Positions 5,505 through 9,484 of a stretch of DNA of 14,286 nucleotides are shown here, in pieces. The number at the start of each line of letters is the position of its first letter. Positions within the stretch are counted from its first letter, which is position 1. The translations under genes were made by a program, and so were the position numbers. The DNA is from a virus (taxonomy: Duplodnaviria; Heunggongvirae; Uroviricota; Caudoviricetes). The DNA lies in IMG/VR virus record IMGVR_UViG_2711768074_000014. One strand, 5' to 3'. The notes under the pieces are model-generated. The model worked only from the letters and a program-made list of their open reading frames with translations. It ran no database searches and was not told where the DNA came from.

Positions 5505-6329
5505 TCAGGCGGTGAAAGTACCAATAAAGGTTTCTACTTTGCTGTCTTTGAATTTCTCAACAAGCAGATCACGAAATTCGTTAGCCATTTCTTCCTGCAC
5601 CGCTTCCAGCTGAATAATGCGCAGAACCAGTACAGGACGATCGCCAGTGATAATGCTGAGGCGTAATTTAAACGGACGTTCTTTCAGACCTTCAAACGGA
5701 ACGCATTTAAATTCAAATGCCACTGGCATAATGTCTTTGGTCTTCGCTTCGACAGACTCCATCAGGGAGCGTTTGCCGCTGAAGTCATTATCTTCAAAAT
5801 CAGCGGTCTGGTTTGCTTCAATCGTGATTTTACGGACTGCCGCAGCCGCTTTTGTTGCTTGAATGGCGTCACCATTAGCATCAAAGCCCACAAGGTAGTC
5901 GGCCCAGTCTTCGATCCATTCTGCCAGTGACTTCTGGGAGTTACGCTCGCCGTTAACAGACAACAGAGCAGAGAACGGTGCTGTCTTTTTCAGTTTGAGA
6001 GTGGCAGTGTTATCTGCGTGACCTGGCTCATCAATAGTACCCAGGTTAAGCACACTGACGGCACGCATATTATCGGCATCGATAAAGCAGCGGGTGCCTT
6101 CATCTGCAAGATCTTTAGAATAACGGGTAAAATCATCGATGCTGGCAGTGGAAAGTGCACCACGGAAACGGAAGCGATTTAAATTAAATTTTTCCAGATC
6201 ATGAATGCGGAAATTCTCAGGCAATGCCACAGCATCGGCACCAATCTTACTGATAATTTCATTAACACTCTGAGCAGAAATAAGGGCATGGATTTGATTA
6301 ATTGCGGTTGCGTCTAAGTTCTGAGACAT
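5505..6329 (-). CDS. yfdQ: Phage protein of unknown function (274 aa), YfdQ-like (DUF2303-type)
   Basis: Long ORF with clear coding character; length 274 aa matches what I recall for K-12 YfdQ, and it lies between the yfdP-like and yfdR-like genes. Confidence 0.65.
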
Positions 6330-6394
6330 AATAAGTCCTCACTATATAAAGATATTCAGTGATGAGATAAATAATCAGTTTATTACGAACGATA

Positions 6395-6757
6395 TTAACG
6401 ACCTGCTGCGCGGAGTTTTCCGTCAGGTTCACCGGCAAGAGTCAGTAATTGTCCCTGGTCTTCCTGCAGAATAGTCAGGCGACCACCGCGATTGACATAC
6501 ATCGGCGTTTCGGTGGTGTCTTCTTCGGAAATTTTCCCGCGGTTAGTTGGGCGAACATATGAGAGTTTGTGTTTGATTTTCACACGGTTCTCATCAAACG
6601 GTTCGATTTCCAGATTGAGTGAGACCTTCCCTTTGGTTTTCGTGTTCATCACACCGGAAGCGACCTCACTGAGAACTGCGCCGATTTTGGTTTCAAATAC
6701 GCCGCCGTCCAGCTCCCCGATAAATGCCTGCACATCAGTACTGCGTTCGCTAGCCAT
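6395..6757 (-). CDS. yfdP: Phage protein of unknown function (120 aa), YfdP-like
   Basis: Start set at ATG 6757 (MASERSTDVQAFIGELDGG...) with GAGGAG 7 nt upstream. The track ORF extends upstream to 6922, but that N-terminal part is Cys/Arg-rich and not protein-like. Confidence 0.6.
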   Translation of the reverse strand: MASERSTDVQAFIGELDGGVFETKIGAVLSEVASGVMNTKTKGKVSLNLEIEPFDENRVKIKHKLSYVRPTNRGKISEEDTTETPMYVNRGGRLTILQEDQGQLLTLAGEPDGKLRAAGR

Positions 6758-6806
6758 TTTGCTGCTCCTCATCATATCGACCCTGCAAGGTCGGTTGGTT
6801 TCTCCA

Positions 6807-6893
6807 CAAAACAGAGAAGAACACCTGCGGTGGCAGCCGCCCGGATGGATTGGGTTATGAGCCCGTCGTCCGGTGATGCTCTTCTCTGTTTTG
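6807..6893. other. Long hairpin: perfect 14-bp inverted repeat CAAAACAGAGAAGA / TCTTCTCTGTTTTG around a 59-nt GC-rich loop
   Basis: Arms at 6807..6820 and 6880..6893 are exact reverse complements. The region has open frames on both strands, consistent with GC-rich non-coding structured RNA or DNA. Confidence 0.5.
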
Positions 6894-6942
6894 CAAAAAA
6901 GGACGGTACCAGCCGGAAGCAAGGGTACAAACTGGTACCGCC
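6894..6942 (-). terminator. Candidate intrinsic terminator on the minus strand, upstream of the early-left operon
   Basis: Inverted repeat CGGTACCAG (6904..6912) / CTGGTACCG (6932..6940) with flanking G:C pairs. On the minus strand it is followed by UCC-UUUUUU (complement of the A6 run at 6895..6900). Confidence 0.45.
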
Positions 6943-7159
6943 AGGACTACACACAGCATAAAGTTGTGGTGCCGGGTGCCTCCCGGTGCCTGGCGAAGGT
7001 TGCACACCAGGCGGGTGGGTATCCACAGAAGGTCGACTGTCAGCCTCAACCTTAACCCGCGTGCGCTGAGCCGCATTCACCACAACGCTAAGGATTCTCT
7101 CTGGTTGAAAATACTTAGCTGTTATGTGCCTGCTTTTAGCCACATCAGGCGAGGTGGAC

Positions 7160-7227
7160 CTGGTTATTCCCCAACAACAAGGATTCGGTTAATCTGGATA
7201 TCCCCAACAACAATAAGAGTATTCAAT
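7160..7227 (+). repeat. Two tandem ~34-bp direct repeats sharing a perfect 13-bp core TCCCCAACAACAA
   Basis: Unit 1 7160..7193 CTGGTTATTCCCCAACAACAAGGATTCGGTTAAT; unit 2 7194..7227 CTGGATATCCCCAACAACAATAAGAGTATTCAAT. They end right at the candidate start codons of the orphan gene. Confidence 0.7.
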
Positions 7228-7251
7228 GTGATCGCTGAATTAACGGCAGCA

Positions 7252-7743
7252 ATGACGGCTATTCGTGAAACAGCCCAGATTGCAAAACTAATGAACGAGG
7301 CAAAAACTCAAGCTGAAGTAAATGCGGCTATTGGTGAGCTGAACTCAAAGCTTGCGTCTATTCAGCGCGAATGCGTGTCTCTCGTTGAACTGGTGGGCTC
7401 TTATCAAGAAATAAATGCTTCTCTCAAAGCTAAAATTGCAGAATTCGAAAACTTTGAGGCTCAGACGGAAGGCTATATCCTTAACCAACTTGAGTCGGGT
7501 ACTTTTGTATACTCGAAGGAGGTAATCGTGAACGGTGGCAGCATAACCATGCATCTTTGCCCAAAATGTTTTGGACAAAAGATAGTATCGATACTTCAAC
7601 CATTCCCGGTTAGCGAAGATGAGCTTTTTCATAAAAGCAGGTGCCTCCACTGTGAAAATAAGTTTCTGATGAATAAAAATCCGGATTACGTATCGCCTCC
7701 ATCCATTGAGGAGTTGTCCAGAAAACTTAACGGCAATCTGTAG
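7252..7743 (+). CDS. Orphan protein (~163 aa): N-terminal coiled coil plus C-terminal C4 zinc ribbon (CPKC-x26-CLHC)
   Basis: AT-rich ORF on the opposite strand to both flanking operons. N-terminus MTAIRETAQIAKLMNEAKTQAEVNAAIGELNSKLASIQRECVSLVELVGSYQEINASLKAKIAEFENFEAQ is heptad-like; C-terminus carries MHLCPKCFGQ...SRCLHCENKF. Followed by an intrinsic terminator. Start uncertain: ATG 7252 has a weak SD, GTG 7228 is the alternative; the in-frame extension back to 6964 is not protein-like. Confidence 0.6.
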   Translation: MTAIRETAQIAKLMNEAKTQAEVNAAIGELNSKLASIQRECVSLVELVGSYQEINASLKAKIAEFENFEAQTEGYILNQLESGTFVYSKEVIVNGGSITMHLCPKCFGQKIVSILQPFPVSEDELFHKSRCLHCENKFLMNKNPDYVSPPSIEELSRKLNGNL

Positions 7744-7782
7744 ATTACTACTGTTGTGGATATCCAGATTGTTAAAGAGCTA

Positions 7783-7806
7783 AGCGTCCTGTAGGGCGCT
7801 TTTTTG
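7783..7806 (+). terminator. Rho-independent terminator downstream of the orphan gene
   Basis: AGCGTCC-tgta-GGGCGCT, a 7-bp stem with one G:U pair and a 4-nt loop, followed by TTTTTT(G). Confidence 0.7.
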
Positions 7807-7888
7807 TTGCTAACGAATCATCCTGGACTTCATATGCCCCAGGCGGCTACTTCGTGGGCGTCCTGCCTGTTCGTTATCTTTGATATAA

Positions 7889-7917
7889 AATCTAACTTAA
7901 CTTAGTTATCATGACAA
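7889..7917 (-). promoter_or_regulatory. Candidate leftward early promoter (PL-like) with embedded operator-like CTTAG motifs
   Basis: On the minus strand: -35 TTGTCA (7917..7912), 17-nt spacer, -10 TAGATT (7894..7889). The spacer and flanks contain ACTTAACTTAGTTA, and CTTAG recurs at about 7950 and 7965, the same motif seen in the cI/cro intergenic region. Confidence 0.4.
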
Positions 7918-7970
7918 GAGAAAACACCAAACTTTTCTTGGTTCGGTGCCTTAGTTAGAGAAGAGAGGTC

Positions 7971-8597
7971 TTAGAGTTCGTATTGAACTCCTTTGACTAC
8001 ACCAATGATAAGGCAATTACCATTGATAGGGATGTTGGGATACCGAGGATTTAATGGCACTAAAAACTTTTGAGGGCCATCGATGACTAATTTTTTTACT
8101 GTAGCTTCGTTTGTTCCATCAAGTCGAGCGATGACTATTTTTCCATGACGAGGTTCTGCATCTGGATCTACAATCACTGTTGCGCCTTCTGGTATTGTTG
8201 GGAGGCCATTAGGGTTAGTCATGGAGTCACCTTTAACCTCTAATGCAAATGAGTTATCACCAACCTTTAATGATGTATCTACCCACTTGTCCACTTCACT
8301 AAACACTTCTGCTGCCCTGCACTCAGTAAACTGCCCAGCCTGAACCCACGATATTACAGGAACTCTGCGCATGTTTGTGACGAGTTTGCCTTCAAACTCA
8401 GCACCGTAAAGAATGTAATCTATTGACGTATTGAAGAACTTCGCTAATTTCGAAAGTGCCTCCCCGCCAGGGGTATTGATGTCTTTCTCCCAGTACCCCA
8501 CAGCAACGTCGCTTACTCCACAAAATTTACCCAATTCTTTCTGGGACGTTCTGGTAACTCTTCTCAGAGCTTTTATACGCTGACCAACCGTTTCCAT
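7971..8597 (-). CDS. cI: CI-type prophage repressor (208 aa): N-terminal XRE-like HTH plus C-terminal S24 (LexA-like) peptidase domain
   Basis: N-terminus METVGQRIKALRRVTRTSQKELGKFCGVSDVAVGYWEKD is an HTH; C-terminus ...ALEVKGDSMTNPNG...GATVIVDP...HGKIVIARL...ATVKKL has the GDSM serine and a downstream lysine. Divergent from cro. Confidence 0.88.
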   Translation of the reverse strand: METVGQRIKALRRVTRTSQKELGKFCGVSDVAVGYWEKDINTPGGEALSKLAKFFNTSIDYILYGAEFEGKLVTNMRRVPVISWVQAGQFTECRAAEVFSEVDKWVDTSLKVGDNSFALEVKGDSMTNPNGLPTIPEGATVIVDPDAEPRHGKIVIARLDGTNEATVKKLVIDGPQKFLVPLNPRYPNIPINGNCLIIGVVKGVQYEL

Positions 8598-8694
8598 AGG
8601 AGCACCATTTCTTTAATCGCTAAGTAATCTTAGTTTTTATTGACCAAAGATAGATTTGTAATTAGCATCTAACAAAACTTAGTTTGGAGGGCGT
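8598..8694. promoter_or_regulatory. Immunity-region operator/promoter (OR with PR, and probably PRM)
   Basis: Inverted half-sites CTAAG-taat-CTTAG (8620..8633), and further CTTAG/CTAAC motifs at 8661..8685. Rightward promoter candidate TTGACC (8640..8645), 17-nt spacer, TAGCAT (8663..8668). GGAGG lies 4 nt before the cro ATG. Confidence 0.6.
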
Positions 8695-8895
8695 ATGACA
8701 ACTGACGATATCGAAAGCTACTTCGGCAGTATTGAGAAAGTTGCTGCTTTTTTCGGCATAACAACTGAAGCCGTTTATCAGTGGCGAAACCGTCCGGGCC
8801 AGTTAATTCCAAAAGGACGTGCAGCAGAAGCTGCATATAGAACTTGCGGACGGTTGCCATTTAAACCTGAGCTTTATGAAAAATCTAATGGATAA
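8695..8895 (+). CDS. cro: Cro-like small HTH regulator (66 aa)
   Basis: Small ORF divergent from cI with a good SD; sequence ...SIEKVAAFFGITTEAVYQWR... is HTH-like. Confidence 0.7.
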   Translation: MTTDDIESYFGSIEKVAAFFGITTEAVYQWRNRPGQLIPKGRAAEAAYRTCGRLPFKPELYEKSNG

Positions 8896-9484
8896 ATCGA
8901 TTAACAGAAACCACAGAACGATGAGGCTAACCGTGGGTAAGCATCACTGGAAAGTAGAAAAACAGCCTGAGTGGTACGTGAAAGCTGTCAGAAAAACTAT
9001 CGCAAAGTTGCCGGGTGGTTACGCTGAAGCAGCTGACTGGCTGGATGTAACAGAGAACGCATTATTTAACCGCCTTCGTGCCGATGGCGATCAGATTTTC
9101 CCGCTGGGATGGGCAATGATTTTGCAACGTGCTGGTGGAACTCACTTCATTGCTGACGCAGTGGCGCAGTCTGCAAATGGCGTCTTTGTGTCTCTTCCTG
9201 ACGTCGAGGATGTGGACAACGCCGATATTAACCAGCGCCTGCTGGAAGTCATTGAACAGATCGGCAGTTATTCAAAACAGATTCGTTCAGCAATTGAAGA
9301 CGGTGTAGTGGAACCGCATGAGAAGACAGCAATTAACGACGAGCTGTACCTCTCAATTTCGAAGCTGCAGGAGCATGCAGCACTGGTCTACAAAATTTTT
9401 TGCATTTCAGAAAGTAATGACGCCCGCGAGTGTGCAGCTCCGGGCGCCGTGGCGTGTCGTGACTGTGGAGAAACTAACGCATGA
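8888..9484 (+). CDS. CII-like phage regulatory protein (198 aa; CP76-type by recollection)
   Basis: Start ATG 8888 overlaps the cro stop by 8 nt, in the position lambda cII occupies. The upstream extension of the track ORF (8819..) overlaps cro and is rejected. Family call is from memory only. Confidence 0.5.

Follow-up and report, generated by a model that had tools for sequence, protein, structure and literature searches.

Which promoter drives the early leftward genes of a lambdoid prophage, and how does its transcript get past a gene that lies on the opposite strand? This question is raised by a 14,286-nt stretch of DNA (hereafter the window) from the virus record IMGVR_UViG_2711768074_000014 (Caudoviricetes), which is part of a lambdoid prophage of the SfV/e14/CPS-53 type. 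Between yfdP and the repressor gene cI, the window holds a conserved non-coding region of ~400 bp, a variable cassette, and a segment just past the cI stop codon in which a preliminary description had placed a PL-like leftward promoter with operator motifs. The best explanation as a whole, to which we assign a probability of about 0.72 on the basis of sequence and comparison, is that this segment would be the CI-controlled PL of the prophage immunity module, followed by a conserved structured leader RNA. The features of the immunity region are these:

7971-8597, minus strand: cI repressor gene, 208 aa (Pfam Peptidase_S24, E 1.8e-27; HTH_3, E 1.3e-9), annotated in relatives as cI or LexA-family
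7921-7952, minus strand: cI terminator, a 12-bp stem whose U-rich tail extends into the −35 box (fold −13.4 kcal/mol)
7889-7917, minus strand: predicted PL, −35 TTGTCA and −10 TAGATT, predicted start at about 7881-7884 (from promoter scan and conservation)
7892-7905: putative operator OL1, CTAACTTAACTTAG, a 14-bp inverted repeat in the promoter spacer that overlaps the −10 box
8620-8633 (CTAAGTAATCTTAG) and 8669-8682 (CTAACAAAACTTAG): putative OR operators, in the cI-cro spacer on either side of PR
8645-8658 (CAAAGATAGATTTG): weak middle OR site, which reads CTAAG... in mEp460_4F5
8640-8668, plus strand: PR, TTGACC-17-TAGCAT, lying among the OR operators
8695-8895, plus strand: Cro of the P22-Cro type (domain match)

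The promoter-like site on the minus strand consists of TTGTCA (7917-7912), a 17-nt spacer and TAGATT (7894-7889), exactly where the preliminary description had put it, and agrees with the consensus at 9 of 12 positions. It is separated from the cI stop codon by 54 nt, is also preceded by the cI terminator, and points away from cI, which lies between it and PR. In a promoter scan it was the sole minus-strand site within 6300-9000; the scan overall was unenriched (3 sites vs 4.2 expected), and the hexamers alone prove nothing. Phages of the same immunity are 689R6, 569R4, Kati, mEp460_4F5 (94%) and LLS, whose immunity region is 77% identical. In 689R6, mEp460_4F5 and LLS the −10 box is kept and the −35 box stays at a constant distance of 17 nt, with the variants TTGTCA, TTGCCA and TTGACC. 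The stem of the cI terminator carries compensatory changes in LLS (CAUCAAAC/GUUUGAUG against CACCGAAC/GUUUGGUG), and an intrinsic terminator is found at the same place, 3' of the repressor gene, in other members of the family.

The 14-bp inverted repeat CTAAS-N4-CTTAG occurs at just three sites in the 14.3 kb (7892-7905, 8620-8633 and 8669-8682). With up to one mismatch and both strands searched there are 6 matches vs 0.94 expected, a number reached by 1 of 200 shuffles, and plain CTTAG is unenriched (16 in the window vs 18.8 expected). The centres of the OR sites are spaced by 25 and 24 bp, and these sites are conserved in the same manner as OL1. The sequence ACTTAACTTAGTTA is located at 7895-7908, and AACTAAGTTAAGTTAGATTTT, which comprises the operator and the −10 box, is invariant in the four phages aligned (the present window, 689R6, mEp460_4F5 and LLS). 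The suggestion that CTTAG/CTAAG half-sites are CI operators shared with the cI-cro region thus agrees with the full repeat, which is confined to the promoter and the cI-cro spacer. Among the individual CTTAG motifs first named as operators, the one within OL1 (7892-7905) stands; that at 7950 lies inside the stem of the cI terminator hairpin and that at 7970 overlaps the cI stop codon, and neither is kept in LLS. A second OL operator upstream of the −35 box (CCAAG-AAAA-GTTTG) was considered and rejected, as this sequence is the stem of the cI terminator, with its compensatory changes in LLS.

The heteroimmune phages PhiR49_1, SfV and e14 are ~99% identical to the window up to position 7875 and unrelated past it; the break in homology with PhiR49_1 and SfV falls at 7875/7876, and homology with LLS begins at 7887. 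Given this mosaic joint, the promoter belongs to the immunity module. At the equivalent spot the heteroimmune relatives have a TTGACA promoter of their own, flanked by GTACC repeats that recur in their cI-cro spacer. The same arrangement is seen in 8 annotated phages from 6 genera: repressor stop codon, intrinsic terminator (in most), promoter with immunity-specific repeats, and then a near-invariant block. A CII/CP76-type protein is also encoded in the immunity region of the window.

These observations support the assignment of 7889-7917, as judged from sequence, to a PL-like early leftward promoter of the immunity module, with operators shared with the cI-cro spacer. PL/OL is an ordinary lambdoid promoter-operator with an operator sequence that is new. 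An S24-type CI would bind OL1, and the same motif flanks PR, so that both early promoters would be shut in the lysogen; SOS cleavage of CI would open PL and PR together.

The near-invariant block on the other side of the joint corresponds to a second element:

7812-7875, minus strand: conserved structured leader RNA of ~62 nt (model match 89.7 bits, E 4e-29)

This leader RNA begins ~7-10 nt into the predicted PL transcript, and in a survey of 112 loci, where a good sigma-70 match exists, the commonest distance from the end of its −10 box to the leader RNA is 12-16 nt. Its architecture is a three-way junction, formed by a closing stem (P0), a hairpin with a GGC/GCC stem (P1) and a second hairpin (P2) with the loop GGCRUAYGAA; it also carries conserved single-stranded motifs of the ACGAAG type. 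A first set of sequences (alignment A2) was obtained by scanning viral contigs with a 21-nt core, which yielded at least 120 loci bearing 90 distinct versions of 67 nt. In this set P0 appears in three unrelated forms, (A/G)CGAA/UUCG(U/C), GUCAUC/GAUG(A/G)C and CCACC/GGUGG, and P2 as at least 10 different stems around the conserved loop. Across the 90 viral versions, 90% of the alignment cells are paired, vs 66% when shuffled and at most 43% with slid partners; double changes are present in 10 of the 14 pairs, and the covariation score (0.58 vs 0.15) was reached by none of 500 shuffles, counts that are not to be read as probabilities because each anchor fixes part of its alignment and the sequences are related by descent.

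The second set (alignment A5), collected independently, was drawn from bacterial genomes of ~100 Enterobacterales species and anchored on the other half of the element, which freed positions 10-23. Here the GGC/GCC stem of P1 is kept and its loop varies in both sequence and length. Aligned to the model, 93.5% of the cells are paired vs 69% in shuffles, with changes on both sides in 13 of 14 pairs. A possible pseudoknot, GUAGCY:GGC.UAY, is compatible with all the variation seen, although the evidence for it is thin: the candidate pairing is 97% paired, with CG in 63, UG in 19, UA in 4 and GC in 1 at position 32-39. An earlier pairing of A13 with position 32 (helix 12-14/31-33) was only 75% paired and was replaced by the GGC/GCC hairpin and the tentative pseudoknot. 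G.U pairs such as those in GUCAUC/GAUGGC work on the leftward strand only. The functional molecule is therefore the leftward transcript, and for the same reason the leader RNA argues for leftward transcription at this place. Sequence and comparison thus establish both the structure of the leader RNA and its strand. One natural variant, at 7058-7124 of L013 (IMG/VR UViG_2602041568_000006), has most of the P2 hairpin and loop deleted (..GCCGCCGGTGGCGGGATGATTCG..).

Across phages of Escherichia, Shigella, Salmonella, Citrobacter, Klebsiella, Pantoea, Yersinia and Pectobacterium, the leader block (7875-7812) is conserved at 81-100% identity, and the leader RNA is carried by about 100 Enterobacterales species representatives. 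A megablast match to 7770-8700 was found in 1533 of 5426 complete E. coli genomes (~28%), the shared part being the leader block in the rows sampled. In E. coli K-12 the e14 copy lies between ymfK, the repressor gene, and ymfJ (NC_000913.3 1202110-1202177, minus strand; L132 6111-6178; 71.6 bits), where it follows a PL of the SfV type. The element is single-copy: the model matches once in the window (89.7 bits; next best 10.7), and each of 93 genome loci likewise gives a single match. Where P0 is of the second or third form, the loci have nearly no protein genes in common with the present window, and their upstream genes encode either helix-turn-helix (HTH)/CI-type (Phage_CI_repr) proteins of ~130 aa or a DUF3037 protein. 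We looked for a partner protein conserved with the leader RNA and found none within the examined flanking sequence of each locus.

No Rfam 15 family matched the leader RNA at E<=1 in a search over 6200-9000, nor at E<=0.1 at the element in four loci of classes B and C, and the leader RNA sequence was found in no paper by literature search. Hammerhead and other small ribozymes were dismissed, as their core motifs do not fit by inspection and Rfam is without a match. From its sequence, the leader RNA appears to be an undescribed structured RNA family, widespread in Enterobacterales prophages and found in K-12 as well. Two further observations concern its surroundings. At nine loci of the two other closing-stem classes (L016, L023, L030, L038, L044, L046, L077, L102 and L126) a second conserved domain (..AACGCGCAGCAGGU..ACGUUCCGCCAGCC..GGC..) stands just 3' of the leader RNA. 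In LLS (L133, 780-1000) PL enters a different leader, which contains a hairpin and then a short U run.

Leftward of the leader RNA, the predicted PL transcript would meet the following features:

7782-7801, with a T-run to 7807, plus strand: terminator of the cargo gene (scan: 8 pairs, then TTTTTGTT)
7768-7780, minus strand: rrn-type boxA, GCUCUUUAACAAU, one exact 13/13 match in the window (none of 200 shuffles had any)
7228-7743, plus strand: cargo gene, 171 aa, GTG start at 7228 (phrog_1244, E 9e-60), antisense to the PL transcript
6893-7116, minus strand: region resembling the small RNA (sRNA) STnc100 (Rfam RF02076, full length, 40.3 bits, E 1e-6, below the gathering score of 47)
6901-6942, with U6 at 6895-6900, minus strand: leftward intrinsic terminator with an 11-13-bp stem (−23.3 kcal/mol, z −3.2)

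When read leftward, the cargo terminator (7801-7782) gives a hairpin of −7.5 kcal/mol that is followed by AGCUCUUUAAC, without a U-tract. The E. coli rrnH leader carries the very same 13-mer, GCUCUUUAACAAU, as its boxA. The sequence 3' of boxA, UCUGGAUAUCCA, allows at most a 3-bp stem by inspection and is unconserved, so that no boxB was found there. No N-like protein was found with Pfam; the one sizeable minus-strand open reading frame (ORF) in this part, at 6772-7143, was considered for this role and judged spurious, since Pfam gave nothing, its translation is of low complexity, and it reads through structured RNA. In SfV, the conserved region that corresponds to the one with the leftward terminator of the window is annotated with a rho-independent terminator to the left of orf33, and a 2026 preprint has linked STnc100 to PasD prophage sRNAs. 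Farther left come minus-strand genes that similarity to annotated relatives identifies as yfdP, yfdQ, an HD hydrolase, EaE, yfdT and an integrase-side block.

Taken in order, these features suggest how the leftward operon might be read. The PL transcript would start near 7882 and would first make the pseudoknot-capable three-way-junction RNA (7875-7812). It would then run through the cargo terminator backwards, where this lacks a U-tract, and through boxA at 7780-7768, followed by ~600 nt of untranslated RNA antisense to the cargo gene (7743-7228). The STnc100-like region and the strong terminator at 6895-6942 would come next, and finally yfdP, yfdQ and the genes up to xis and int. The leader RNA would act in cis on the transcribing polymerase, in the fashion of HK022 putL, and boxA would bring in Nus factors to counter Rho along the untranslated antisense stretch. 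That the leader RNA in cis and boxA with Nus factors together carry PL transcripts past the antisense stretch and the terminator is a tentative proposal, to which we give somewhat less than even odds. The promoter/operator architecture, the membership in the immunity module, the structure and strand of the RNA, the identity of boxA and the terminator are, for their part, read from sequence and comparison. The wider generalization, that the leader RNA represents a new cis-acting class for processive antitermination or antipausing, with a fold unrelated to put, serving the early-left (recombination/excision) operons of N-less lambdoid prophages of Enterobacterales, is more doubtful still.

In e14, ymfJ, ymfH, xisE and intE are co-induced upon SOS or loss of the repressor (PMC11002266; YmfT iModulon, PMC12132413). 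The group also takes in rightward genes, and the opposite-strand gene ymfI is unlisted there (PMC11002266; PMC12132413). The authors who described LLS noted that N is absent from its phage group and suggested an RNA mechanism, leaving early antitermination open (PMC12315714). The PL-like leftward promoter of the preliminary description is thus backed by the confinement and invariance of the operator, the linkage to the immunity module, the strand of the leader RNA and the co-induction in e14.

The locus resembles several known systems in part. It shares with PL/OL of lambda an early leftward promoter that is separated from PR by cI and governed, like PR, by CI via OR-related operators, and with nutL a boxA in the leader and terminators ahead of the delayed-early genes. 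Unlike lambda, it has one clear operator rather than three, it is without an N gene, a conserved boxB and rexAB-type genes, a plus-strand cargo gene lies inside its leftward unit, and its boxA, of the rrn form (13/13), follows a structured RNA. It is therefore not an N/nut system like those of lambda, P22 or phage 21: a boxA is present, but there is no N and no boxB. In rrn leaders the order is boxB, then boxA. The present locus has the identical 13-nt boxA, a hairpin before it and a long untranslated RNA after it; it differs in that it is a phage early operon, in that the hairpin doubles as the terminator of an opposite-strand gene, and in that Nus binding is putative. In the rrn leader the boxA is bound by the Nus-factor complex NusB-NusE-SuhB (PMC5725501).

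The closest parallel in position is the put RNA of HK022, a cis-acting antiterminator RNA of an N-less phage, with putL and putR copies (PMC9378689). The hallmark of put is that it suppresses terminators without a protein, by way of the zinc-binding domain of the RNAP beta' subunit. As at putL, a structured RNA of ~60-70 nt lies within ~10 nt of the PL start in an N-less phage and is made first. The put fold, however, has two long V-shaped stems and no closing stem, whereas P0 closes the present element into a three-way junction; the two have just short words in common (CGAACGGC and AGGAUGA), and activity of the present element is a prediction. The leader RNA is thus outside the put family by fold, by sequence and by its want of a second copy, though it stands at the putL position. 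With SfV and e14 the window shares the series of repressor, terminator, PL, the same leader RNA, variable small genes, xis and int, and e14 likewise has an opposite-strand gene (ymfI) inside its leftward operon; these phages differ in their GTACC-type operators (CTAAG-type here), in their cargo, and in lacking a boxA module.

Several points weigh against the reading of a CI-controlled PL followed by a functional leader RNA. The promoter at 7889-7917 fits just 9 of 12 consensus positions, and both the PL start and CI binding in the present phage are predictions from sequence. Multiple OL operators, which would allow cooperative binding, were not found: there is one clear OL site, where lambda has three. 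The antitermination step is the part most affected. No PR-side copy of the leader RNA is present in the window or in the 93 genome loci, and LLS has the same PL/OL with a better −35 box (TTGACC) and does without the leader RNA. BoxA accompanies the leader RNA in a subset of loci only and is missing from most. Homology of the leader RNA to put is unsupported, since its covariance model gives no match on putL or putR and the fold differs. A crude census, which favours neither side, found a same-strand terminator downstream of the leader RNA in 50 of 94 loci.

Other explanations can be weighed against the same evidence. The leader RNA may be a stabilising or processing module at the 5' end, or the body of a trans-acting sRNA cut from the PL transcript, with PL itself as described above. 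P0 closes the element off as a self-contained unit between variable flanks; it is single-copy, and LLS functions without it; prophage leaders often give rise to sRNAs, and an STnc100-like RNA lies on the same transcript. A simple 5' stabiliser, however, would not need junction and loop nucleotides that are near-invariant across Enterobacterales, and neither a conserved terminator or 3' end after the element nor a complementary target was identified. We consider this explanation rather unlikely. It is improbable that the leader RNA is instead a nut-like site for a phage or host protein (an unrecognised analogue of N) acting with the boxA that follows: the perfect boxA downstream on the same RNA would suit such a role and the conserved single-stranded ACGAAG-type motifs could contact a protein, but no gene near the element is common to the three stem classes, the PR side carries no second site, Pfam gave no N-like protein, and most loci with the element are without boxA.

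A riboswitch-like aptamer, sensing a ligand or signal and gating early leftward transcription, would account for a compact three-way junction of ~62 nt whose junction nucleotides are highly conserved and which may form a pseudoknot; yet there is no conserved expression platform, the sequence changes right after P0, and no Rfam aptamer matches, which makes this proposal very improbable. Least credible of all is the view that the hexamers at 7889-7917 are due to chance, the conserved block is a recombination linker, and another promoter drives the early-left genes. Promoter-like sites are indeed no commoner than in shuffles (3 vs 4.2), and the block does lie exactly at the mosaic joint. Against this, the covariation, in which the closing stem takes three unrelated forms, points to a structure under selection, the promoter keeps its distance from the block in unrelated immunity types, the operator and −10 box are invariant at a background identity of 77%, and there is no alternative minus-strand promoter within 6300-9000. 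A CI-controlled PL with its leader RNA remains the explanation that we prefer.

The gene opposed to the leftward transcript had been called an orphan in the preliminary description, a label that no longer applies, since it matches phrog_1244 (E 9e-60) and relatives of it occur in HK620 (hkaP), HK629/HK630, Klebsiella prophages and Pseudomonas phages of the DMS3/JBD30 type. Its product has a coiled-coil N-terminal part and a CxxC...CxxC C-terminus; it matched no Pfam family and no PADLOC defence model, and the promoter scan found no sigma-70 promoter for the gene. Like the morons of HK97-type phages, the cargo gene (7228-7743) has its own terminator and is swapped as a cassette between conserved junctions. 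Unlike them, it opposes the early operon, so that PL must transcribe it antisense, and no sigma-70 promoter of its own was found. The statement that PL transcripts run antisense through this gene has the same comparative support as PL itself. Convergent transcription from PL may dampen the cargo gene after induction; mutual exclusion between its expression and induction could reasonably follow from such transcription, and is offered here as speculation. Opposite-strand cargo genes inside the early-left operon are suggested to be common in this group. Over the 3 kb downstream of the leader RNA at 94 loci, a crude detector counted 0.97 opposite-strand terminators per kb vs 0.30 same-strand ones.

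A perfect 10-bp palindrome, TGGATATCCA, does lie at 7757-7766, between the cargo stop codon (7741-7743) and the plus-strand terminator (7782-7801), as had been pointed out. Such palindromes occur at chance level (12 in the window vs 13.6 +/- 3.3 in shuffles), and the sequence is not palindromic in relatives, so that a role of its dyad as boxB, invertase site or operator was rejected. It falls instead within a longer repeat at the borders of the cassette:

7745-7770: right arm, with TGGATATCCA, of a 26-nt inverted repeat (repeat I1, 85% complementary) whose left arm is at 7191-7216
7160-7216, plus strand: tandem CTGGWTAT(T)CCCCAACAAC junction, which holds the left arm (7191-7216)

The same tandem junction precedes at least seven different, unrelated plus-strand cargo genes in related prophages and looks like a boundary of cassette exchange or a shared 5' leader. 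In relatives of the 689R6 type, the right-arm sequence stands ahead of a minus-strand gene and lacks the palindrome. Judged by sequence, the arms of the inverted repeat are cassette junctions or 5'-leader sequences, the right arm being a remnant of such a sequence, and not a site defined by its dyad. The idea of an invertible cassette is likewise unsupported, as the repeat serves in 689R6 as a junction or leader ahead of genes of either orientation.

Two observations were made elsewhere in these elements. Between the leftward terminator and yfdP, at 6800-6900, lies a hairpin of ~25 bp (−50.2 kcal/mol leftward, z −7.2) that is kept in SfV and 689R6. Matches to isrK and C4 antisense RNA were found in SfV (L003, 5545-5733) and at L038 (477-674), the latter with a1/b1 targets, a sign that these elements carry, at another place, an antisense immunity module of the P1/P7 type.

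The assignment of PL/OL is textbook lambdoid biology on an unstudied immunity type, and what it adds lies in the leader RNA. The window also presents a recurring design, in which opposite-strand cargo genes lie within the early-left operon, here with an rrn-type boxA just before the untranslated antisense stretch. For phages of the SfV, ST64B and e14 types, which are without N, the leader RNA is a concrete candidate for the means by which the terminators of the early operon may be passed, and one that can be tested genetically in K-12.

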